Shown one piece after another: positions 3,623 to 17,449 of a stretch of DNA of 58,146 nt; within the stretch, counting starts at the first letter, position 1; the number at the start of each line of letters is the position of its first letter. The translations under genes and the position numbers were made by a program. The DNA comes from Patescibacteria group bacterium. GTDB lineage: Bacteria; Patescibacteriota; Patescibacteriia; 2-01-FULL-39-33. The stretch is taken from positions 1 to 58,146 of the forward strand of contig JBAZQS010000004.1 of NCBI GenBank assembly GCA_041645075.1, in the 5' to 3' direction. The notes beneath the pieces are model-generated. The model did not search any database. It worked only from the letters and a program-made list of their open reading frames with translations, and was not told the DNA's origin.

Positions 3623-5830
3623 TTACAATTTCTTTCGCTTCAGCAACAGTGAATTAACCACCACCGAAACACTGCTTAACGCCATGGCCAAACCGGCAAA
3701 CTCGGCCCGCAACAACCCTAAGGCGGCAATAGGAATGCCGACGCTATTGTAAAATAAAGCCCAAAACATATTCTGTTTGATTTTGGCCAAAGTTTGCCGG
3801 CTTAGTTTAATCGCTTTAATCACATCTTGCAAATCATTTTTGATTAAAATAATGCCGCCGGTTTCAATGGCAATATCCGTGCCGGCTCCCATGGCAATGC
3901 CTAAATCCGCTTGGGCCAAAGCCGGCGCGTCATTAATGCCGTCGCCGACCATGGCCACCACCACCCGCCGCGGGCGGAAATTTTTCAATTCTCCTTGTTG
4001 CAGTTTTTTTATCTCTTTGGCTTTGTCCTCCGGCAGAACTTCGGCTAAAACCTCGTCAATGCCGACTTGACGGGCAATCGCTTGGGCGGTGCGCTGATTA
4101 TCACCGGTAATCATAATGGTTTTAATTTTTATTTTCTGCAATTGCTTTATGGCCGCGGCGGTCGTCTCTTTTAAAGTATCGGCCACGGCAATCAGGCCGA
4201 CGACATTTGAATCAATCGCGGCCACCATCACGGTTTTTCCTTCATTTTCTAAGCGGCTCTTATCTTCTTTAATATTAGCGGCCACGGCAATATTAAATTG
4301 CGCCATTAATTTTTCCGTGCCCACTAAAACATCTTGGCCCGTCACTTCGCCTTTGACGCCATGACCGGCAATGGCGGCGAAATTAGTCACGGACAATAAT
4401 TCTAAATTTTGTTCTTTAGCTTTTTTAACAATCGCTTCGGCCAAGGGATGCTCGGAGCGATTTTCCAATGAAGCCGTTAATTGTAAAATCTTATTTCGCG
4501 TTTGGCGTTTGGCGTTTGGCGCTTCAATAATGTCCGTAACTTCCGGTTGCCCCTTGGTTAAGGTGCCGGTTTTATCAAAGACAATGACTTGAATCTTATT
4601 AGCCGCTTCCAAGGGCTCGCCGCCGCGAATCAAAATGCCATTTTCCGCGCCTTTGCCCGTGCCCACCATAATGGCGGTGGGCGTGGCCAAGCCCAAAGCG
4701 CAAGGACAAGCAATCACCAATACCGCCGTAAAAGCAAGTAAAGCCGTCACAAAAGGCGAGAGAACCAAAAAATACCAACTGATAAAAGTAATCAAGCCCA
4801 AAGCGATAACCGCCGGCACAAAATAACCGGAGATTGTGTCCGCAAATTTCTGAATCGGCGCCTTACTGGCTTGAGCGTCTTCAACCACTCTGATAATTTG
4901 CGCCAAGACCGTGTCTTTGCCCACTTTGGTCGCCTTAAACTTAAAACTGCCGGTTTTATTAATGGTGGCGCCAACCACCGAATCCCCGATTTTTTTCTCC
5001 ACCGGAATGCTCTCGCCGGAAATCATTGACTCGTCAACACTGGAATAACCTTCCATCACTTGGCCGTCAACCGGAATTTTTTCGCCCGGCCGGACCATGA
5101 CCAAATCGCCGGGCGCCACTTCTTGAATCGGCACGTCAATTTCTCGGCCGTCCCTGACGACCCGGGCGGTTTTGGCTTGCAGGCCCATTAATTTTTTTAT
5201 GGCTTCGCCGGTTTTGCCTTTAGCCCGCGCCTCCAGCCACTTGCCCAAAATCACAAAAGTGATAAGCAAGGCCGAGGTCTCATAGAATATTTCACCCTTA
5301 ATTAAATAAGTGGTGGCCAAGCTGTAAAAATAAGCGGCGCTGGTGCCAATGGCGATTAGCGTGTCCATATTGGCCGTCTTGTTTTTAAACGCAAAATACG
5401 TGCCGCGGTAAAACCGCCAGCCAAAATAAAACTGAACAAGGCCGGCTAAAAGCGACTGGATAATTTTGCTTTGAAAAGAGGTATCGCGCAAAATCATGCT
5501 TAAAACCGCCACCGGCAAGGTCAAAATTAAACTGAAAATAAATATATTTCTTTCTTTTTTAATTTCTTTTTCGCGAAGGCCTTGGGCTTGATCAAGGGCC
5601 TCTTCGGTTTCGGTTACCGCCGCCGCCTCATAGCCACTGTCTTTGACGGCCGCGATAATTTCTGGCTCCTGGCCGACCTCGCCCTCACATTGAACAACGG
5701 CTTTCTGGGTGGCAAAATTAACCGTAACGTTTTTCACGCCCGGCAATTTTTTTAAATTATTTTCAATCGTTAAAGCGCAGGAAGCGCAATGCATGCCGGA
5801 AATATTGTAAGTGGTTTTTTTGTTTTCCAT
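3623..5830 (-). CDS. copA: copper-translocating P1B-type ATPase
   Basis: N-terminal HMA motif GMHCASC, CPC in a transmembrane helix, DKTGTLT phosphorylation site, GDGINDAP. Confidence 0.9.
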
Positions 5831-5854
5831 GTTTATAGCTTATTTATAATCATC

Positions 5855-6223
5855 TCATTCTACTATCAATTTGCCCTGATACATGCCCATATCGCAGGCA
5901 AAAATAAATTCGCCTTTCCCTGTCGGCGTAATTTCTATGGTCACGGTCCGACCCGCCGGCAATTCCCGCCGAATTTGCCAATCGGAAAAATTAACAAAGC
6001 GCGAGCACTCATTATCCTCTTGCCGAGTAAAATTAATCCTGATGGGTTCGCCCAGCTTGGCGCGGATAATATTGGGCGAATAGACCCCCTTGACGATAAC
6101 GTCAAAAACCTGGCGGCCGCCGCTTTCTTTGGCCGCGACCCCGGTTTGATTTTTAGTATACCAAAGCCACAGCCAAAAAAGAACGGCGACCATAATAATT
6201 AAAATAATGCCGATTAGTTGCAT
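5855..6223 (-). CDS. membrane-anchored cupredoxin-like domain protein
   Basis: N-terminal TM helix and C-terminal EFIFACDMGMYQGKLIVE (Cys/Met/His-type ligand region). It lies immediately upstream of copA, a common pairing. Confidence 0.6.
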   Translation of the reverse strand: MQLIGIILIIMVAVLFWLWLWYTKNQTGVAAKESGGRQVFDVIVKGVYSPNIIRAKLGEPIRINFTRQEDNECSRFVNFSDWQIRRELPAGRTVTIEITPTGKGEFIFACDMGMYQGKLIVE

Positions 6224-6242: not shown

Positions 6243-6596
6243 TTAACAGCAATATAATTTATCCGGCATTTCCCCCGCCTTTATTTTGCCAAAAGGATTG
6301 CCGTATTTTCTGATGTTGGCAATCATCTCTTTATTGGCTTCGGTTTCTAGGCCCAACGCCACCATTTTCTGCCGGATGCTTTCTATTTCTAAATCATAAC
6401 CCAAGGGACAAATCACCCGGCAAGCGAGGCAAACCGTGCAGTGAGTATAAAATAATTCAGCCAATTTTTCATTGTCCTTTAAAATGGCCTTGCCTCTGGG
6501 CGAGACACTCTCATGCCTGACGAGCTTAAAAAATTCACAGGTCTCGCGGCATAATCCGCAACGGCTGCAGATATTTTTCTTTTTCTCTTCTGTCAT
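6243..6596 (-). CDS. 2x[4Fe-4S] ferredoxin-type subunit (GlcF N-terminal-like)
   Basis: Two Cys clusters, CSRCGLCRETC and CTVCLACRVICP. It overlaps the upstream gene by 4 nt. Confidence 0.6.
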   Translation of the reverse strand: MTEEKKKNICSRCGLCRETCEFFKLVRHESVSPRGKAILKDNEKLAELFYTHCTVCLACRVICPLGYDLEIESIRQKMVALGLETEANKEMIANIRKYGNPFGKIKAGEMPDKLYCC

Positions 6597-7759
6597 ATGA
6601 CTTTCCCCCGGTTAAATATCCCACTGGGGTCAAATTTATTTTTTAAGTCCCGCCGATATTTTAATTCAAGATTATCTAAAAATTGTTTCTTTTTCAAGCC
6701 GATGCCATGCTCACCGCTTACTTTTCCGCCCAATTGATTTACTAAAGCATACATTTCTTTTATTTTTTCTTTTTCCTCGGGTCTAAAATGGGGATGAAAA
6801 ATACCAACGCCAATGTGCCCGAAAACCGGCACGGCGTTTTTTGAAAACCAATCCAACATTTCTTTGACGCCGGACTCGGGCACTAAGGGGTCTTCAATAA
6901 TCGGATAACCGCTGCCAATCATTATGGGCGCGATGCCTTCTCTTTTATGCCAAAATTTTAACACCTCAACCTCGCTCTTATTAGGCCCCTCAATTTCCGC
7001 AAAAAGATAATATTTTTCTTCTAAACCCAGGCGCGAAGCGATCAGGGGAGAAATAAATTCTAAAGAAAGTAGGCCGGGAATTTTTTTCCAATTTCCAACC
7101 ATCGCCAATAAGTCGGCCACGTTATTACCGCTGGCCATAATCACATAGGTCTCTTCAATTTTATTAACGAGTTTTAATTTCATTTTTACCATTAAGCCAT
7201 TTAATCCTTCCGAGCCGACAATTTCTTTTATTTCATCGCCACTGATATTAATGATTTCGCCATTACCGTCCACCAGCCATAATTCCTCAACCCAATCGGA
7301 CATCCGGCCGAATTTTAACGACCAAATCCCGGCCGCATTGGTGGCGGCCATTCCGCCCAAAGTACAAACCGAGTGGCTGCCGGGAATCACGGGAAAAACT
7401 AAATTATATTTTTTTAAAAATTCATTAAGCTGATCTAAAACCACCCCCGGCTGGACCATGGCCGTCTTATCGTTCTCATTAACTTCAATAATTTGATTCA
7501 TTTTGGAAAAATCAATCACCAGGGAATTTTGCGGCACGCAACCGCCCACCAGTCCGGTACCGGCGCCCCGAGCCGCCAAATCAAGGCCTGATTTTTTTGC
7601 CTCCTCAATCACTTGAATAACCTCATCAATTGATTCCGGCCAGACGCAAAGCGCGGCCGAACCAACCACCCCGGAGGCGTCCGTGGAACAAGCCAGCAAG
7701 TCCTCATTATTATAAGAGGACTGGCAGTGGTTTAGTTTTTTAATTAATTCCGACACCAT
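6593..7759 (-). CDS. FAD-binding oxidoreductase (GlcD / D-lactate dehydrogenase family)
   Basis: FAD_binding_4-like region (ARGAGTGLVGG) and C-terminal GEHGIG motif. At 388 aa it is shorter than typical GlcD. Confidence 0.75.
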   Translation of the reverse strand: MVSELIKKLNHCQSSYNNEDLLACSTDASGVVGSAALCVWPESIDEVIQVIEEAKKSGLDLAARGAGTGLVGGCVPQNSLVIDFSKMNQIIEVNENDKTAMVQPGVVLDQLNEFLKKYNLVFPVIPGSHSVCTLGGMAATNAAGIWSLKFGRMSDWVEELWLVDGNGEIINISGDEIKEIVGSEGLNGLMVKMKLKLVNKIEETYVIMASGNNVADLLAMVGNWKKIPGLLSLEFISPLIASRLGLEEKYYLFAEIEGPNKSEVEVLKFWHKREGIAPIMIGSGYPIIEDPLVPESGVKEMLDWFSKNAVPVFGHIGVGIFHPHFRPEEKEKIKEMYALVNQLGGKVSGEHGIGLKKKQFLDNLELKYRRDLKNKFDPSGIFNRGKVI

Positions 7760-8445
7760 ATTAATTCTGATAATTCTAAAACCGCCAGATCACTGGGGGC
7801 ATTTTCCTTAAACTGAAGGTAGCACAATGGGCAGGGGCTGACCAATTTTTTCGTCTTGACTTGCGAGAGCACGTTGTTCGCCACTTTATTGGCCAAATCA
7901 GGATTATTGGTTTTAACCCCGCCACCGGCCCCGCAACACCGGCTCTTATCCAGGGCGCAAGGAAATTCAGCAATCTGATAGCCCATGTCCTTTAAAATTT
8001 TACGCGGTTCTTGATAGATGCCATTATATCGGCCCAAATGACAGGGGTCGTGATAAGTAATGGGTTGGGCCGACGGCCAAGCCGCCTTAATTTTTGAAAC
8101 TTTTTTAACTAATATTTCTGTTATGTGCTCAACTCTAAGGCCATAGTTATTCTTGAATATATTAAAACAGGCCGGGCAATTGGTAATAATTTTTGTGACA
8201 TTGTATTTTTTAAAAATGGCCAGATTTTTTTCTTTTAAATCAGCAAAGTCCTGCAAATAGCCGGCTTTAATCACCGGACTGCCGCAGCATAATTCCTTAT
8301 CCGGCAACATTATAAAATCAACGCCAATTTGGCGCAAAATTTTTTCGTACCGGCTTTGAATGTCGGGCAAAACCGTTTTAGTCAAACAACCGGGATAATA
8401 CAAAGTATTGCCGCCGATTATTTTCGCCATCACTTTTTTAAACAT
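7744..8445 (-). CDS. CCG-domain (Fe-S)-binding protein (GlcF C-terminal / LutA / HdrD-like)
   Basis: Two cysteine-rich CCG-type repeats: YYPGC..CCGSP..NCPAC and YHDPCHLGR..RCCGAGGG..PCPLC. Confidence 0.7.
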   Translation of the reverse strand: MFKKVMAKIIGGNTLYYPGCLTKTVLPDIQSRYEKILRQIGVDFIMLPDKELCCGSPVIKAGYLQDFADLKEKNLAIFKKYNVTKIITNCPACFNIFKNNYGLRVEHITEILVKKVSKIKAAWPSAQPITYHDPCHLGRYNGIYQEPRKILKDMGYQIAEFPCALDKSRCCGAGGGVKTNNPDLANKVANNVLSQVKTKKLVSPCPLCYLQFKENAPSDLAVLELSELIWCRN

Positions 8446-8800: not shown

Positions 8801-8977
8801 TTAATGGCAACAACCGCCCTTTTTGCTGATTTGACTTACGCCGGCAATCTGGTTTTGTTCTTCATATTTTTTTAAACAGTTTTCCGAACAAAACTTTTCG
8901 CCGTAGCGGGAAATAAAACTTGGGGTGGCGGCCATACCGCAAATAGGACATTTTTTCTGCCTAAATAATTGAAACAT
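8801..8977 (-). CDS. small TRASH/YHS-like Cys-rich metal-binding protein (58 aa, below the ORF-track cutoff)
   Basis: Hand translation gives MFQLFRQKKCPICGMAATPSFISRYGEKFCSENCLKKYEEQNQIAGVSQISKKGGCCH. It has the CPxCGM...C..C pattern plus a C-terminal GGCCH, and fills a gap in a tightly packed operon. Confidence 0.5.
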   Translation of the reverse strand: MFQLFRQKKCPICGMAATPSFISRYGEKFCSENCLKKYEEQNQIAGVSQISKKGGCCH

Positions 8978-10004: not shown

Positions 10005-11270
10005 CTAAGTGAGCCAAATTAAAATAAGCAGGCCCAGAATTAACATGGTTAAAGCCGAAATTAGCCGCATCGTCTTGCTTTCCGACTGTTCCCATTGAGT
10101 TAAATGTTTAACCGCGACTTTATTGGCCGCCAAAAGCAAAATAATAATCAACGGCGCCACGAACATTAAATTATATAACAGCAGATAGCCGATACCGCCC
10201 CAGTAAGTGGTCTTGACCGCTAACAGGCCGATAATCGCCACATAGATGCCGCCGGAACAGGGAAAAGTGCATAAGCCGACCAGAAAGCCAAGAATAAACG
10301 CGGCCGGCAAAGTTGATTTATAAACCCACTTTTGAATTGTCTCTTTGCTATTGTGGGGAATCCGCAGTTTAATCGGAAAGCGCGGAAATAACTGGCCGAT
10401 TAAATTAATGACGCCCAAGCCAATGACTAACCAAGCGCCTAATTGAGCCATAAAATGCGGCGAATTGGTAAATAAAATTGCTTTTAAAAGACCAAAACCA
10501 ATCAGCAAATAAGCCAGATAAATCGCGGTGATATAGACCAAGCCCATTTGCCAAATCGCGGCGCGAGTTCTGCGCAAACTGAAAAGAAAAGCGATAAAAA
10601 AAAGCAAAACCGCGAAGGCGCAAGGATTAATGCCGTCTAAAAAGCCCGAAACCAAGACCACCGGCAATAAATTTTGGTATTTATTAAACTGATTTTTGAC
10701 TTTTTTAGTCAAAGATAGCTGGTCTTTGTTTTTTTCCAAATCAGTCAAATATTGGCCGATGGGCGCGTCAATCGGATAAGTCCTAATTTCGCCAGCGAAA
10801 TCATCGGCCCAAGCCGGTATGGCCCAAACCTGATAGGTCGTCGGACTGCCGTGCATTTCATCTTGATAAACAATCAGCCGTTTAAACTTTTGGCTATTTT
10901 CCGGCAAAAAAAGGTCTTTGATAATTTGCTCGGGAATATGGCCGGCTAAAATATATTGGTCGCCGATAAAAGTCATAATGTGGCTTTGCAAAGGCAAAGG
11001 CACGCCCAATTCAGTCATCAATTCATTTAATTCCGGCCGATTGCTCCGTTGGTTCAAATAGTCCTTTTTAACAAATTCGGTTATTCCTTGCTGGGTTAAG
11101 ACCTTTGGCAAATCATTATTAATATAAGCCGCGCACATGCCGCAGGCCTCGTTATAATAAATCAGGGCCTGGCTCTTGTTTAAGTGAGCGCTATGCGCCG
11201 AAACCAAAACCGGCGCGGCTAATAAAAACAGGGGGGTTAAAATTAAAAGACCAAAATTTTTTTTAATCAT
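10005..11270 (-). CDS. CcdA/DsbD_2-family thiol-disulfide transporter with N-terminal exported CGMC domain
   Basis: Signal peptide and YYNEACGMCAAY in a ~190-aa exported domain. The TM core has GINPCAF and TFPCSGG cysteines, as in CcdA/DsbD. Confidence 0.65.
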   Translation of the reverse strand: MIKKNFGLLILTPLFLLAAPVLVSAHSAHLNKSQALIYYNEACGMCAAYINNDLPKVLTQQGITEFVKKDYLNQRSNRPELNELMTELGVPLPLQSHIMTFIGDQYILAGHIPEQIIKDLFLPENSQKFKRLIVYQDEMHGSPTTYQVWAIPAWADDFAGEIRTYPIDAPIGQYLTDLEKNKDQLSLTKKVKNQFNKYQNLLPVVLVSGFLDGINPCAFAVLLFFIAFLFSLRRTRAAIWQMGLVYITAIYLAYLLIGFGLLKAILFTNSPHFMAQLGAWLVIGLGVINLIGQLFPRFPIKLRIPHNSKETIQKWVYKSTLPAAFILGFLVGLCTFPCSGGIYVAIIGLLAVKTTYWGGIGYLLLYNLMFVAPLIIILLLAANKVAVKHLTQWEQSESKTMRLISALTMLILGLLILIWLT

Positions 11271-12772: not shown

Positions 12773-13291
12773 TTATTTGACTACATTGGCGGTAATAATC
12801 AAAGCGCTGGCCGCATTATTTTTGCCGTCATCGTTGGTAGAAAAATTAATTTGACGGGTAATTTGACCGGTCGCGTCCGGACCATGGGCGTTGGGGTCAA
12901 AAATCACTTCCAAATTCGCGCTCTGGCCGGGCGGCAGTTTCGTTGACCAAAAAGCGGGGTTGGTCCCGTGACCGGACATGCCAAAAACCGGACTTTTTTC
13001 GCCCTTAATTTCTAAAACAACCGTGGTGCACATACAAGAGGTGCTGATATTGGAAATTTTTAAATCCGCGTCGCCTTCATTTTTTAAAACAAAATTCTTT
13101 TTCACCAAGCCCCGAGCCATAGAAACATCGCCAAAATCATAACGGGTGGATTCAATGACTAATTTTGCCGTTCCGGCCTGACCGGAATCGGAATTTAAAT
13201 TAGCGACCACGCCTACGGTAATGCCCCCGACAAGGAGAACCACGGCGCTAATAATTAAAATTTTCAAGCGATTATTGTTTGTTTGAGCCAT
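12773..13291 (-). CDS. DUF1573-domain exported protein
   Basis: Signal anchor; an FGDV...N.G...L.I..ISTSCMCTT pattern, as in DUF1573 (ASH/Ig-like fold). Confidence 0.65.
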   Translation of the reverse strand: MAQTNNNRLKILIISAVVLLVGGITVGVVANLNSDSGQAGTAKLVIESTRYDFGDVSMARGLVKKNFVLKNEGDADLKISNISTSCMCTTVVLEIKGEKSPVFGMSGHGTNPAFWSTKLPPGQSANLEVIFDPNAHGPDATGQITRQINFSTNDDGKNNAASALIITANVVK

Positions 13292-13299
13292 AAATTTTT

Positions 13300-13318
13300 G
13301 AGATGGTTACAAAACTAT
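13300..13318. repeat. GAGAT-family motif (single arm)
   Basis: GAGATGGTTACAAAACTAT is identical to the left TIR of the 177-bp element. It lies 8 nt upstream of the 13291 start codon. Confidence 0.55.
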
Positions 13319-13319
13319 T

Positions 13320-13829
13320 TTATTTTTTAATAACCTTGGCCCGAAGTTCAACTTCGGCCTCGGGCTTTTGGGAATCGTTAGATTTAATATAAACCACGCG
13401 GACAATTTCGCCCAAATCCATATCGTCTTGGTGAACCGCCGGGTCAAAAGTTACCGACATTTCCGCGCTTTGGCCCGGAGCGATAATTTTGTCATTTTCG
13501 GCCATGGTCGCTTTGGTGCAACCGCAAGAAGTTGAAAGACGCAAAATTTCTAAGGGCTGGTTGCCGGCATTGGCAATGGTAAAAGTTTTTTGGGCAATCT
13601 CGCCGTAAATTACCGTACCCCAGTCAAAAGCGGCGGGCGTAATTTGAATGGCTGGTCCTTGGCTTAAATTTTGATTGGCGGAATTTTCATTGGCCTCTGA
13701 ATTGTCCGTTGAGTTCAGGTTGTTAACCGCGGCCGCCTGATTATAGGTGCGATAAATACCCAAAGCCAAAGCCACTAACACGACTAAGGCCAAAAAAAAT
13801 AAAATAATTTTATTAGACATATTTTTCAA
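13320..13829 (-). CDS. DUF1573-domain exported protein (paralogue)
   Basis: FDWGTV...NAGNQPLEILRLSTSCGCTKA, the same architecture as 12773-13291. Confidence 0.65.
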   Translation of the reverse strand: MKNMSNKIILFFLALVVLVALALGIYRTYNQAAAVNNLNSTDNSEANENSANQNLSQGPAIQITPAAFDWGTVIYGEIAQKTFTIANAGNQPLEILRLSTSCGCTKATMAENDKIIAPGQSAEMSVTFDPAVHQDDMDLGEIVRVVYIKSNDSQKPEAEVELRAKVIKK

Positions 13830-13859: not shown

Positions 13860-14735
13860 CTATTGAGCCGGTGCCGCATTAGCCGGCGGCGGCGGTTGAA
13901 CTGCGGTAGCCGGTTGAACTGCGGTATTGGTAATTAGATTATAATAGACCCCCATCTGTTTAACGCCCTCGCGAAAAACATAGGTTCCGTCGCTTTCAAC
14001 CGTGCCGACTTGAGACCAAATACTTTTAAGCGCCGGATAGGCCTCAACATCGCCCTTTAAAATAAAAGTCGGCAATAATTTAATTTTATATTTATCAACC
14101 AATTTCAGGCCATCGGGCAGGGTGGCGTCCACCACTTGGCTGTTATCAGTCAAAATCCCAAAACGCGGCAAAATTTGCTCATGCTCGGTCACATCATAAC
14201 AGGTCGGGCATCGCTTATCGGCGATTAAAATTAACTCAACTAAACCCTTGATTTCGCCCGAACTGACCAAAAGGTAGGGGGCGCTGACATTTCTTAAAAT
14301 AAAAGTGTCACTATTTTTAATCTCGCCGATTTTTGTCCACAAATTTTTAAGGCCCTCGCTTTTATTAAGCTCGCCCTTCACAATAAGAGCCGGTATTTTG
14401 TCAATCTGATACTGACTGATTAAGGCCTTGGCTTCCGGACTGGCCGAATCAATGTTTCTTTCTGATTTGGTCTTAATGTTTTCTTTTTTGATTAAATCAA
14501 TAATCGGCGTCAGACCGGCGCATTGTTGGCAGTTGGCGTCAATAATGGTAATTAATTCTAAATCGGCCGGCCGAGCCGCTTCTCTGGTGGCCGCTAATTT
14601 TTTACTTAATAACCAATCAGTCCGCCCCCCAACCACCACGGCCACGCTCAAGCTGATAAAAATTATCAGTCCCAAACCAAAAATCAACCAGGTCTTGATT
14701 TCCATATTTAATTCTTTAATCGGGCGCTTTAACAT
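13860..14735 (-). CDS. membrane-anchored double thioredoxin-like protein
   Basis: N-terminal TM helix and two CxxC motifs (CQQC, CPTC), each followed by similar sequence (KIPALIVKGE / LLPTFILKGD). Pro/Ala-rich tail. Confidence 0.55.
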   Translation of the reverse strand: MLKRPIKELNMEIKTWLIFGLGLIIFISLSVAVVVGGRTDWLLSKKLAATREAARPADLELITIIDANCQQCAGLTPIIDLIKKENIKTKSERNIDSASPEAKALISQYQIDKIPALIVKGELNKSEGLKNLWTKIGEIKNSDTFILRNVSAPYLLVSSGEIKGLVELILIADKRCPTCYDVTEHEQILPRFGILTDNSQVVDATLPDGLKLVDKYKIKLLPTFILKGDVEAYPALKSIWSQVGTVESDGTYVFREGVKQMGVYYNLITNTAVQPATAVQPPPPANAAPAQ

Positions 14736-14755: not shown

Positions 14756-15040
14756 TTAGCAGCCACCCACCATATTGGGTAGGTTTTGCACCTGGCCGGG
14801 CAAAGCATTGCCGCTGGGGCTACCGGCCGCGTCCGCGGCTTTAATCACGGCTCCACCTTTGACTTTGCTGTAAATCGTGGCGGATTGCACGGCCTGAATC
14901 ACGGAAAAAACCGTTAAAACGACCAAAACCGCGCTCACCATAGAACTGCCGAATTTTAGCCGATGCTTGCTTTTTTTATTCAAATGCAACCCATCTAAAA
15001 TTTCCGTTTTGATTTTTTCTAATTCCGATTTTGGTTCCAT
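14756..15040 (-). CDS. small membrane-anchored protein ending in LPNMVGGC
   Basis: 94 aa with one TM helix. The C-terminus QVQNLPNMVGGC is shared with the upstream neighbour. Confidence 0.5.
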   Translation of the reverse strand: MEPKSELEKIKTEILDGLHLNKKSKHRLKFGSSMVSAVLVVLTVFSVIQAVQSATIYSKVKGGAVIKAADAAGSPSGNALPGQVQNLPNMVGGC

Positions 15041-15079
15041 GTTTTTGTTTATTAATAATTATTTATCCGTAATTAATTT

Positions 15080-15832
15080 TTAACAGCCGCCCACCATATT
15101 GGGCAGACCTTTAATATCCGAGGGTAGCGGCGCGCTTTGACTGCCTTTGCCATAATCGGGTAGTTTCATGCCTAAAAGCAGTGAGGCGACATCGGGCGTA
15201 AAATTAGCGCCTTGCAATTGGCTGGTTATTTTTTGAATCATTTGTTTGGGAAAATACAGCCCTTTCCAGCGCGCCAATTCCCGCAGCATTTCATCGTCGG
15301 TATATTCACTATTGTGATTTTTAATCAGATAAGCCAATAAGCCGCGCATGGCTTGGGAATGAGCGCAACCGCAAGCGGCTTGGCCATCCTCCCGAATTAA
15401 TGAGGTGGCGCCGCAGCAATATTCGCAAGCAATTTTTAAACCGATATTAATATAACGTTGCAAATCCTGGTCCGCCAAGACGATTTTTTGACTGCCATAA
15501 GTGGGGTCAAACTGTTTTATCACATTCATGGCCGGCTCAACCTGGTCAAAAGAAACGGCTAACTCCGCGCCGTAAATTTCGGGCGTTCCTTGAGCCATGG
15601 CTAATTTAATGGCGTCTTGAGAAATATCGCCGCTTAAAGCGACGCCACTGCCCCCGCCCGAACCAAGCGCGCCCGCAATTTTACTAATGGGATTGTTGCT
15701 AAGGCCAAGATTTTTATAAATTTTACCCAAAATAATTTGGTTAATCCCGAAAGAGAACAATAAAACAATTAACAAAACGAGATTAACGACCGCTAAAGAA
15801 GCTCGGGCCGGTTGCTGGCTGGAGAAAAACAC
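15080..15832 (-). CDS. membrane-anchored Cys-cluster protein ending in LPNMVGGC
   Basis: 250 aa with an N-terminal TM helix, the cluster CEYCCGATSLIREDGQAACGCAHS and the C-terminus KGLPNMVGGC. Confidence 0.55.
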   Translation of the reverse strand: MFFSSQQPARASLAVVNLVLLIVLLFSFGINQIILGKIYKNLGLSNNPISKIAGALGSGGGSGVALSGDISQDAIKLAMAQGTPEIYGAELAVSFDQVEPAMNVIKQFDPTYGSQKIVLADQDLQRYINIGLKIACEYCCGATSLIREDGQAACGCAHSQAMRGLLAYLIKNHNSEYTDDEMLRELARWKGLYFPKQMIQKITSQLQGANFTPDVASLLLGMKLPDYGKGSQSAPLPSDIKGLPNMVGGC

Positions 15833-15866
15833 AAATTTTAAATTATTATTAAATTAAAAAATAAAT

Positions 15867-15887
15867 CCTACTATGCAGTGTAGTAGG
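15867..15887. promoter_or_regulatory. candidate BlaI-type operator (CCTACTA-N7-TAGTAGG)
   Basis: Perfect 7-7-7 inverted repeat 35 nt upstream of the 15832 start codon, in the only >100-nt gap of the cluster. Confidence 0.4.
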
Positions 15888-15938
15888 AGAATTAACCTTT
15901 GTCAAATTTACTTATCCACAGGTTTAAAAATTTTAGAA

Positions 15939-16982
15939 TTACTCACAACTGGTCATGGGCGAGCGATAGCTATTCTGGCATTCATGGCTGGCCGGCAGCG
16001 CCAAACACTGGCGCGAAGAGGCCTGAATTTCCACCAGCGGGCAAGAATTAACATCGACCCCATAAGAATAAGAGGAGGCGTCCAAAGGCGAGAATAAAAC
16101 AAAAAATACGGGCAGAGTTAAAAGCAATAATAAAGCAAAAACAAAATAGCGAGAAAAAATCCGTAAAGGCAGGTGGTAGCGGCGATCGGCTAATTTATTA
16201 ATCCTTTCTTCGGTGATTAAGCCAAAAAAGGAAAGCGCCAAATGCCCTTGAACTATTTTATTTTCTTTTATCTTTATTATTTTGTACAGGGCCCGGGCTA
16301 AGGGAATTTGACTTTTAAGGCGAGCGATGGCTTTCTCATCGGCGGCTAATTCGGAGAAAATCAAATATTGTTTGGTTAAAAATTTTAAACCCGGAAAAAA
16401 GAAGCAAGCCCTATTAATGACCTTGACCATAAAAAGCCGACGGGGCTCGCCCACCAGCGCGTGGTGCCGCTCATGGCTTAAAACCGCCATTAATTCTCGG
16501 ACGGTGAGTTCTTTAACTAAAGCGGAAGAAAGGCAAATCTTTGGTTTAATGAAGCCAAAACAAAAAACTATTGGCTGCTCACTGGCGATTTCCACCAAAC
16601 GATCATTGAGTTTCAACTTTTCCGCCACGGATTTTAATTTTAAAGATAACTGTGGTTTTTGATTTTTCAATTGGCTTTTGACAAATTTAGCGGTGGCCAG
16701 ATTCAAGTGGATAATCTTAAACAAAAACAGGATTAAAAGACTAAAAATGCCAAGGGTTAAAATAATAATCCCGCTAAAAATTAAAGGATGGTTGGCAAAA
16801 ATAAAATGATGAGCGCAGCCGCACGCCATCTCTAATCGGCCGGCCAGCGATCTAACGGCGGCCATGGCTGGGGGCAGAAGTTTGATAAAAATAAAAATAA
16901 TTATCGCTAAAAAACTTAAACCTAAAATTAAAATTTGGTAAAAAATCAAATTCGCTTTTTGGTTTAAATTAATTTGCCTCAT
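15939..16982 (-). CDS. BlaR1/MecR1-type M56 (M48-like) zinc-peptidase sensor
   Basis: Multiple TM helices and the HEXXH motif LSHERHHAL. It follows a BlaI-family gene by 18 nt. Has a CGCAHH motif and a Cys-rich C-terminal tail. Confidence 0.7.
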   Translation of the reverse strand: MRQINLNQKANLIFYQILILGLSFLAIIIFIFIKLLPPAMAAVRSLAGRLEMACGCAHHFIFANHPLIFSGIIILTLGIFSLLILFLFKIIHLNLATAKFVKSQLKNQKPQLSLKLKSVAEKLKLNDRLVEIASEQPIVFCFGFIKPKICLSSALVKELTVRELMAVLSHERHHALVGEPRRLFMVKVINRACFFFPGLKFLTKQYLIFSELAADEKAIARLKSQIPLARALYKIIKIKENKIVQGHLALSFFGLITEERINKLADRRYHLPLRIFSRYFVFALLLLLTLPVFFVLFSPLDASSYSYGVDVNSCPLVEIQASSRQCLALPASHECQNSYRSPMTSCE

Positions 16983-17000: not shown

Positions 17001-17405
17001 CTAACGGCGGGCCAAGACCTTTTTTAATTTTTTTTGCCATTCGGCTAATTTTTTTGAGTCGCTGGTTTCCAAAAAATCAATAAATTGAGCCACCCCCACT
17101 TCGCCAAAAGTCCTGATTAAATTAGTCACCGCCTTTTTTGAAGTGGCCGCCAAAAAATCTTCCTTGCCTTGGGCCGGATGATAAATATAAGCCCCGTCAT
17201 CATTGAGTCGGCGCTTCAAAATGCCTTTTTCAAACAAACGCGACATTACGGTCATAATAGTGGTATAGGCGATTTTTCGGCTCTTTTTTAAACGGCTAAA
17301 AACTTGGCGCACCGAGACCTGGTTTAATTCCCAAATCACTCCCATCACATCGGCCTCTAAGGTGCCCAAGGGCTGTTTTAATTGTTCAATCTTATTTATT
17401 TTCAT
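17001..17405 (-). CDS. BlaI/MecI/CopY-family winged-helix repressor
   Basis: 134 aa. LEADVMGVIWELNQVSVRQV...YTTIMTVMSRLFEKG is the typical Penicillinase_R fold. There is no C-terminal CxC metal site. Confidence 0.8.
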   Translation of the reverse strand: MKINKIEQLKQPLGTLEADVMGVIWELNQVSVRQVFSRLKKSRKIAYTTIMTVMSRLFEKGILKRRLNDDGAYIYHPAQGKEDFLAATSKKAVTNLIRTFGEVGVAQFIDFLETSDSKKLAEWQKKLKKVLARR

Positions 17406-17429: not shown

Positions 17430-17449
17430 TACTACACTACATAGTAGTA
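17430..17449. promoter_or_regulatory. candidate BlaI-type autoregulatory operator (TACTAC-N8-GTAGTA, inner ACTAC-ATA-GTAGT)
   Basis: Inverted repeat 25 nt upstream of the repressor start codon. It shares CTAC/GTAG half-sites with 15867-15887. Confidence 0.4.

Follow-up and report, generated by a model that had tools for sequence, protein, structure and literature searches.

The window analysed here is a stretch of 58,146 nucleotides (nt) of contig JBAZQS010000004.1 (assembly GCA_041645075.1), from a Patescibacteria group bacterium. Two adjacent genes on its minus strand, one encoding a membrane-anchored Cys-cluster protein of 250 amino acids (aa) that we refer to as BIG (15080–15832) and the other a protein of 94 aa that we refer to as the small protein (14756–15040), both end in the octapeptide LPNMVGGC, followed directly by the stop codon. 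This tail marks one conserved gene pair in copper/thiol islands of ultra-small bacteria and archaea, and it is most likely a flexible arm with a working terminal cysteine, rather than a sorting signal. As to its cargo, sequence and gene context suggest an extracytoplasmic arm whose terminal thiol binds Cu(I) and passes it on, and which is kept reduced by a protein disulfide oxidoreductase (PDO)-like protein and CcdA; we give this reading an even chance of being right. Much of microbial diversity belongs to bacteria of the candidate phyla radiation (CPR) and to DPANN archaea, and most of their envelope proteins are without an assigned function.

A C-terminal tail conserved in two protein families

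The C-terminus of BIG, a protein read from a GTG start codon, is ...DIKGLPNMVGGC, and that of the small protein is ...QVQNLPNMVGGC; a gap of 39 nt separates the two genes. The identity of the two octapeptides, which a preliminary description of the window had pointed out, was confirmed from the open reading frames (ORFs), and its count of approximately 21 identical positions in the last 24 nt is correct: the final 24 coding nucleotides of the two genes contain three mismatches (CTA/CTG, GGT/GGC and TGC/TGT), all of which are synonymous. Estimated from amino-acid composition, identical eight-residue ends in two given proteins have a probability of ~2e-10, and a degenerate DNA pattern that encodes MVGGC-stop, ATGGTNGGNGGNTGYTAR, has two matches in the 58-kb window, as against 0.00 in 100 shuffles. 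When BIG and the small protein were compared by BLASTP, only the last 15 residues aligned (LPxxfxxLPNMVGGC, 10/15 identical, E = 9e-6). Because the alignment is limited to this segment, the shared module is approximately 15 aa long and not 8, as originally described, whereas the original statement that nothing else in the two proteins is similar holds. On the basis of this alignment and the tail logo, the module corresponds to residues 236–250 of BIG (LPSDIKGLPNMVGGC; 15083–15127, minus strand) and residues 80–94 of the small protein (LPGQVQNLPNMVGGC; 14759–14803, minus strand). The only sequencing runs found to hold the stretch are DNA metagenome runs from groundwater and landfill.

The tail is retained in homologues. 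Among the best 120 of 2030 BIG homologues, 119 end in xPx[M/Q]VGGC. A profile search with BIG against 1.84 billion representatives at 50% identity returned only 358 clusters; among the 150 best, the ending is GGC in 113 and G[GSADE]C in ~127, and position −4 is occupied by Met in ~80 and by Gln in ~27. Judged from these sequences, conservation of the tail in BIG homologues, written as [M/Q]VG[G/S/A]C, is about 85–99%.

The pattern search suggested in the preliminary description was run as two scans with a degenerate DNA pattern. The scan of one genome per prokaryotic species yielded at least 119 loci, and the same approach applied to metagenome contigs yielded 120 further loci, for a combined set of 239, most of them from DPANN archaea, together with Patescibacteria. 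Among the matches listed for the genome scan, approximately 100 are from DPANN archaea (Woese-, Aenigm-, Nano- and Micrarchaeota) and about a dozen from Patescibacteria, so that the tail recurs in both groups, and it does so in two families. Every real tailed ORF in the 239 loci is either a BIG or a member of the small family, and no third family was found: the genome loci contain 75 BIG and 87 small tailed ORFs among the matches listed, and the metagenome loci contain 73 and 103, respectively. The small family is present in at least 88 of the 119 genome loci. Of 104 small genes, 78 are preceded on their own strand by a BIG gene at a distance of at most 1 kb; the median gap is 35 nt. Matches to the pattern in Paenibacillus, Clostridia, Planctomycetes and similar taxa were discarded as chance (for example, ORFs of 8 aa). 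[L]Px[M/Q]VGGC-COOH is a sharply defined and easily recognised hallmark of a conserved cassette.

One explanation for the identity of the two ends is that the tail has no function of its own and was recently copied from one gene to the other, or homogenized by gene conversion. Paired tails are indeed more alike within than between genomes. The variable tail residue x is identical in 25 of 71 BIG/small pairs, versus 11 expected, and synonymous third positions match between paired tails in 149 instances, whereas local codon usage predicts 120 (z = 3.7). This within-genome concordance indicates some exchange between the tails, or their co-selection, and suggests a shared partner and/or occasional conversion. 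However, MVGGC is retained in both bacteria and archaea and in hundreds of clusters at 50% identity, whereas the flanking sequence varies freely. Conversion cannot account for such conservation between genomes, and the purely synonymous nature of the three differences in the window also argues against copying. On the strength of the cross-domain conservation, we therefore reject recent duplication or conversion as a full account of the identity and consider it very improbable. The preliminary description had allowed that the motif might be missing from homologues or reflect a recent local duplication; its conservation across two domains speaks against both.

Architecture of the two tailed proteins

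Members of the BIG family are 200–460 aa long and begin with a transmembrane (TM) helix. In the window protein, the N-terminal membrane anchor spans residues ~12–36 (15725–15799, minus strand), corresponds to a helix at residues 9–41 in the AlphaFold2 (AF2) model, and ends in a near-invariant N31-Q32. In an alignment of 146 bacterial and archaeal BIG sequences, N31 is kept in at least 90%, and the invariant columns are C136, C139, C140, C154, G155, C156, H158, W189 and P195. Most of these residues form the cluster C136-x2-C139-C140...C154-G-C156-x-H158 (15359–15427, minus strand). Exactly six cysteines, five in the cluster and one at the terminus, are found in 268 of 297 Cys-tailed homologues. 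The window protein has no Pfam or NCBIfam family, nor do the 146 members match any family consistently, and a profile search found no sequence relative of BIG in the PDB. The AF2 model (predicted local distance difference test (pLDDT) score of 88; predicted template modelling score of 0.75) is mostly helical and has no similar PDB structure by Foldseek, for which the best E-value was 2.1. In this model, the last 10 residues have a pLDDT of 80, as against 67 in the preceding linker block, which hints that the tail may pack onto its own domain. The pair defines two protein families that are absent from Pfam and NCBIfam, one of which is without a structural relative in the PDB. Among the long BIG variants, a single domain fusion was seen, to FKBP.

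In the BIG tree, the window protein falls inside a well-supported clade of 60 Patescibacteria sequences. The tree requires at least six changes of tail state and four changes of domain label, the latter pointing to several transfers or to mis-binned contigs. The tail is absent from some BIG lineages in which the adjacent small protein is still tailed, and in these the five cysteines and the histidine of BIG remain invariant. Such tail-less proteins, with an intact cluster and a tailed neighbour, fit an arm that can act in trans on a conserved site. In one tail-less clade (Uhrbacteria/Magasanikbacteria; Shimodaira–Hasegawa-like approximate likelihood-ratio support of 99), the Cys tail is replaced by a His/Met-rich Gly tail, GHxTHGGAGxDG[M/R]HG. 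His/Met-tailed BIG members were found at loci L011, L050, L051 and L083 and in P0217, P0226, P0230, P0242, P0251 and P0261; the gene order at such loci is thioredoxin-fold protein, small, thioredoxin-fold protein, BIG.

The small protein contains little besides the tail. Its K/R-rich N-terminus, which is predicted to be cytoplasmic, is followed by a TM helix with the motif VIQAVQSA (14873–14947, minus strand; family consensus [AL]VQ[AT]xQL, from family comparison), by a leash recognised as low-complexity from family composition (14804–14872, minus strand) and by the tail itself. Four close homologues of the 94-aa protein were found, all with NLPNMVGGC ends. Across the family, proteins of 65–150 aa consist of a TM helix, a leash rich in S, A and G, and the tail; a median of 45 residues follow the TM helix, of which 22% are S, 12% A and 11% G. 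Among small proteins of at least 45 aa in the metagenome sample, 92/97 have a TM-like segment and 79/97 an xQxxQ motif. Some members contain inserts of the YEEMMARMHP type or His/Cys-rich cytoplasmic N-termini. The preliminary description had assigned a single N-terminal TM helix to both proteins and placed the tail outside the cytoplasm. Each protein indeed has one hydrophobic helix, and the enrichment of K+R on the N-terminal side of the helix in the small family (2.83 versus 1.62) fits an N-in/C-out orientation, which is a prediction only. In archaeal islands, we also observed TM mini-proteins of 55–57 aa that end in ...GGGCG (L036:781–948, plus strand; L039:3778–3951, minus strand; L091:2662–2829, minus strand) and that appear to be a second spelling of the arm-only protein.

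Taken together, the anchor, the leash, the invariant Gly-Gly-Cys tip and a Cys5-His partner site that persists after loss of the tail fit a swinging arm. The small protein would then be an anchor, a leash of ~30–45 residues and an arm, and nothing more, whereas BIG, with its invariant CxxCC...CGCxH, would be the receiver or catalytic protein, usually equipped with an arm of its own.

Copper and thiol genes around the pair

Neighbouring genes were counted at 107 real loci (≤8 kb each). The conserved gene order is regulator, BIG, small and tandem thioredoxin, often followed by CcdA/DsbD and further Cys-motif membrane proteins. A thioredoxin/DUF1573 cluster neighbour is present at 78/107 loci and a CcdA/DsbD neighbour at 42/107, the latter count comprising true DsbD_TM genes and the cluster mates of the CcdA/DsbD-like gene of the window; BlaI, M56/M48 and P-type ATPase neighbours are present at 25/107, 20/107 and 7/107 loci, respectively. 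The survey bears out the co-occurrence with BlaR1-like, DUF1573 and CcdA genes that had been anticipated from the window alone. The most conserved neighbour of the pair is a membrane-anchored tandem-thioredoxin protein of 291 aa with two CxxC motifs (13860–14735, minus strand), which resembles PDO and protein disulfide isomerase; its AF2 model has a pLDDT of 93, and its best Foldseek match is the Pyrococcus furiosus protein disulfide oxidoreductase 1a8l (E = 4e-6, probability 1.00). The window also encodes two DUF1573 proteins with CxC motifs, SCGC and SCMC (12773–13829, minus strand; Pfam DUF1573, 8.6e-18 and 4.1e-14), and a CcdA/DsbD-like membrane protein that has two 'PC' motifs in TM segments and an N-terminal CxxC (10005–11270, minus strand; weak Pfam SfLAP match only). 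DUF1573 genes are likewise located downstream of the pair at L120, L121, L006 and L052. In Magasanikbacteria, a 276-aa membrane-anchored GILT/DsbA-like protein that ends in ...GGCGG is encoded between M56 and BIG (L018:2975–3805, minus strand; L085:5199–6029, plus strand).

Copper genes were found within 10 kb of the pair in 7/7 wide contexts, a small and not randomly drawn sample of loci with 10-kb flanks, and also in the window. These contexts contain a cupredoxin and CsoR (L120); DUF411/CopG and CsoR only, thioredoxin and CcdA genes being absent within 10 kb (L122); an HMA–DsbD–cupredoxin protein, CsoR and CopA (L124); CutA1 and a cupredoxin (L125); CopA and an HMA protein (L246); and CopA with a multicopper oxidase (contig of P0082). 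The cassette of one Aenigmatarchaeota contig has a fusion of thioredoxin_3 with a plastocyanin-like cupredoxin as its third gene (L247:11687–13060, plus strand); this three-gene island is surrounded by housekeeping genes. In the window, BlaI-like and M56 genes stand at the start of the same-strand run, and genes for a CupA-like cupredoxin (CxMxM) and a CopA P1B-ATPase stand at its end (3623–6223, minus strand; Pfam Cupredoxin_1, 1.9e-19; HMA, E1-E2_ATPase and Hydrolase). The cupredoxin (5855–6223, minus strand) is membrane-anchored, carries C...CxMxM (FACDMGMY) and lies directly upstream of CopA (3623–5830, minus strand), an arrangement that resembles the pneumococcal cupA–copA.

The genes at the start of the run encode a BlaI/CopY-family repressor (17001–17405, minus strand; Pfam Penicillinase_R, 4.8e-23; NCBIfam CopY_TcrY, 3.5e-11, below cut-off) and a BlaR1-like M56/M48 membrane metalloprotease, a candidate sensor (15939–16982, minus strand; Pfam M56, 4.8e-15, and M48, 2.2e-9). 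The loop between the first two TM helices of the M56 protein contains ACGCAH (16809–16826, minus strand), which is also the hexapeptide of the BIG Cys cluster, and CGC is present at the corresponding site in 4/4 BIG-adjacent M56 genes examined at other Patescibacteria loci. The sensor may have a ligand-sensing site in common with BIG. A promoter-like TTGACA-17-TACACT that overlaps a perfect 8+8 inverted repeat, TCCTACTA-N7-TAGTAGGA, is found upstream of BIG (15866–15905, minus strand). This element is ambiguous: a run of T follows the hairpin and gives a terminator-like score, so that it could instead end the M56 transcript, and an operator and a terminator are indistinguishable here. A candidate operator near 17430–17449 was not recovered by a repeat search with a seed of 6. 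In both CPR and DPANN, the cassette ties a BlaI/BlaR1-type sensor to copper export and to thiol chemistry of the envelope.

The gene contexts also bear on whether the tail could be a processing, sorting or attachment signal, as the preliminary description had proposed, in which case an enzyme would cleave the tail, lipidate the cysteine to create a second anchor, or link the protein to the wall or S-layer. Such a signal is suggested by the strict conservation and strictly terminal position of the motif, by the loose resemblance of VGGC to a lipobox, by the M48/M56 peptidases near 20/107 loci and by an Lgt gene inside one Patescibacteria version of the operon (L124:12848–13648, plus strand). 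However, CTERM-type signals are carried by many unrelated cargo proteins, whereas the 239 loci contain two cargo families, usually adjacent to each other, and the window contains two tailed ORFs. The stop codon directly follows the motif in all homologues, with no TM or basic segment behind it, unlike the tripartite signals LPXTG, PEP-CTERM, PGF-CTERM and GlyGly-CTERM. No sortase-, exosortase- or rhombosortase-type gene was found among the conserved neighbours or in the seven wide contexts. The peptidase is absent from ~80% of loci and was never seen without BlaI, a pairing that makes it look like a regulator. Lgt occurs in two loci only (L124 and L093), neither of them the window, and is not expected in archaea; Lgt acting on a C-terminal lipobox was on this count rejected as a general mechanism. 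A lipoprotein lipobox, moreover, belongs to an N-terminal signal peptide, whereas the cysteine here is the C-terminal residue, and a CaaX signal would place the cysteine at position −4 and not last, the present tail being predicted to lie outside the cytoplasm. Finally, the tail is identical despite the differing envelopes of CPR and DPANN. Given the two cargo families, the bare C-terminus, the lack of a conserved processing enzyme nearby, the peptidase–BlaI pairing and the rarity of Lgt, a general sorting signal is unlikely, and the proposed tag finds no support in these data.

Possible cargo of the proposed arm and relation to known systems

In the reading that we favour, LPx[M/Q]VGGC-COOH would not be an address label but the functional tip of a flexible arm that is tethered to the membrane and faces outward. 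The cassette would serve in copper-stress islands, with the window copy placed behind the BlaI/M56 sensor–repressor pair. At the membrane surface, the terminal thiolate would pick up Cu(I), such as the ions that CopA exports, and the arm would deliver it to the Cys/His cluster of BIG or collect it from there, while the PDO-like tandem thioredoxin and CcdA would hold the thiols of the arm and cluster reduced. CopA is known to deliver Cu(I) to an outside acceptor such as CusF (PMC7558416, PMC8456105). A thiophilic metal, Cu(I), is favoured as the cargo by the regular presence of copper genes, by the His/Met-rich tail of one BIG clade and by the Met/His inserts of some arms. If the arm does carry Cu(I), it would explain how copper is accepted from CopA, and how surface proteins are protected, in cells without CusF-like periplasmic chaperones.

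Several points weigh against Cu(I) as the cargo. A lone cysteine, with Met replaced by Gln in ~20% of homologues, is a poor Cu(I) site, so that one more ligand, supplied by the cluster or by a further arm, must be assumed. Within ≤8 kb, thioredoxin-fold genes (78/107 loci) and CcdA genes (42/107) are linked to the pair much more tightly than P-type ATPases are (7/107), so that these immediate surroundings suit a purely redox role no less well. The seven wide contexts, being few and not randomly drawn, also limit what the copper genes can tell. The preliminary description had listed a Met/Cys Cu(I)-binding arm among its options; the arm and the copper context (7/7 contexts and the window) stand, whereas the replacement by Gln indicates that Met is not an essential ligand.

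A redox role is the main rival because the nearest neighbours are thioredoxin-fold proteins and CcdA and because Met at position −4 is dispensable. The arm would then belong to a thiol–disulfide relay or tethered thiol buffer, with the terminal cysteine shuttling between CcdA/PDO-like reductases and oxidised envelope cysteines, such as those damaged by copper. This could involve mixed or arm-to-arm disulfides, or the terminal cysteine could act as a resolving cysteine for the BIG cluster, and copper would be the inducing stress and not the cargo. The tightest neighbours, namely the PDO-like tandem thioredoxin and CcdA/DsbD, support such a relay, as do the odd number (five) of invariant BIG cysteines together with the one in the tail, and the GILT/DsbA-like neighbour with its own GGCGG tail; the one fusion of BIG to FKBP, a folding catalyst, points in the same direction but is too thin to use. 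Flexible C-terminal redox tails also occur in high-Mr thioredoxin reductase and MerA. By contrast, the His/Met-rich tail of one BIG clade cannot perform disulfide chemistry but can bind metal, the pair at L122 is accompanied only by CopG-like and CsoR genes, and some arms contain Met/His inserts. Of the thioester or disulfide relay raised in the preliminary description, the disulfide version is supported by the tight linkage to PDO-like and CcdA genes, but not decided by it. We regard a relay as possible, although somewhat doubtful.

The arm could, alternatively, be a covalent carrier of the SoxY type, with the terminal cysteine bearing a persulfide, sulfane sulfur or another adduct between enzymes. 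The SoxY arm ends in GGCGG, which the GGC end of the present tails resembles, and both systems have, outside the cytoplasm, a sole reactive cysteine in a Gly-rich flexible C-terminal peptide that is thought to visit partner active sites. In SoxY, intermediates are attached via the cysteine of this swinging arm (PMC5336275). Other proteins of the islands end in GGCGG or GGGCG, and in one context a rhodanese–DUF1573 fusion is encoded directly upstream of BIG. However, SoxY is a soluble β-sandwich that pairs with SoxZ, whereas the present system consists of a helical Cys-cluster protein and an anchor-leash mini-protein, and its cysteine is the very last residue (MVGGC-COOH in both window tails, in place of the GGCGG of SoxY). 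No SoxY domain was detected, hmmscan (E ≤ 0.01) returning 0 Pfam-A families for either window protein, and no soxZ, soxA, soxX, soxB or other sulfur-oxidation genes were found among those called in the window run and in the seven wide contexts. Rhodanese was encountered once only, copper genes are far more regular, and the context is one of copper and thiols, not of Sox genes. A covalent carrier is accordingly improbable in our judgement. Either alternative, redox or covalent, would constitute a new use of the peptide swinging-arm principle.

CusF, CopG/DUF411 and CutF are, like the tailed proteins, small envelope proteins of copper islands. CopG uses CxCC to hold a tetranuclear Cu cluster bridged by Cys (PMC7558416), and the small protein CutF has, besides a Cys motif, a conserved motif at its C-terminus that is essential (PMC7558416, PMC8456105). 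None of the three is homologous to BIG, however, for CopG is thioredoxin-like and CusF a β-barrel whereas BIG is predicted to be helical, and none uses a terminal cysteine on a membrane-tethered leash. No match to PF04214 was found in 146 BIG members at E ≤ 1, and at L122 DUF411 is a separate neighbouring gene. Neither tailed protein has an HMA match or an MxCxxC motif, as would be expected of HMA/CopZ proteins. C-terminal tails that bear cysteine are also known from MerA (Cys-Cys), high-Mr thioredoxin reductase (Gly-Cys-Sec-Gly) and Ctr1 (HCH). There, too, a mobile Cys tail fetches a metal ion or electrons for a buried Cys pair, but these proteins are cytosolic flavoenzymes or a eukaryotic transporter, have two redox or ligand residues per tail and share no homology with the present ones. 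For the ThiS/MoaD/QbsE β-grasp proteins, no ThiS/MoaD Pfam match was obtained and no E1-like gene was found nearby; BIG is predicted to be helical, and the small protein is a TM helix with a low-complexity leash. The archaeal/Aquifex PDO (1a8l) and CcdA/DsbD resemble the partner tandem-thioredoxin CxxC protein, which is encoded beside CcdA/DsbD genes in copper-linked islands, but this likeness concerns the partners and not the tailed proteins, and PDO is cytosolic whereas the window protein is membrane-anchored. Scs-type copper-tolerance thiol systems are similar by analogy only.

In the literature library searched, we found no description of the motif, matches to 'MVGGC' being unrelated acronyms and strings, and nothing on the cassette in connection with CPR/DPANN, copper and thiols. 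The principles involved (a peptide arm, an envelope copper chaperone and a CcdA-fed thiol system) are known, whereas neither the motif nor the proteins that carry it, the arm-only mini-protein included, appear to have been described before. A bolder proposal, which we put forward as a speculation that is more probably wrong than right, is that the cassette constitutes an unrecognised extracytoplasmic carrier system common to CPR and DPANN. Some of its genes would serve no purpose other than to encode an anchor, a leash and a thiol tip of five residues. These arm-only proteins would act as gene-encoded surrogates of low-molecular-weight thiols, tethered to the membrane, or as covalent carriers, serviced by the new-fold Cys5-His protein and recycled by PDO/CcdA, and ACGCAH of the M56 protein would read the same ligand state.

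Two further features of the window involve redox or cysteine-rich proteins. Between SHOCT/DUF3105 genes and the cupredoxin, amid the run of envelope-protein genes, lies a block of genes for a Fer4 dicluster protein, an FAD-oxidase-like protein and a CCG protein (Cys-rich, Hdr/GlcF-like; 6243–8445, minus strand). An ORF of 58 aa (8801–8977, minus strand) has CPICG near its N-terminus, with a weak match to the treble-clef DUF2116, and ends in ...KKGGCCH; similar small ORFs with GGGCCH or GGCH ends were observed at L012 and L044.

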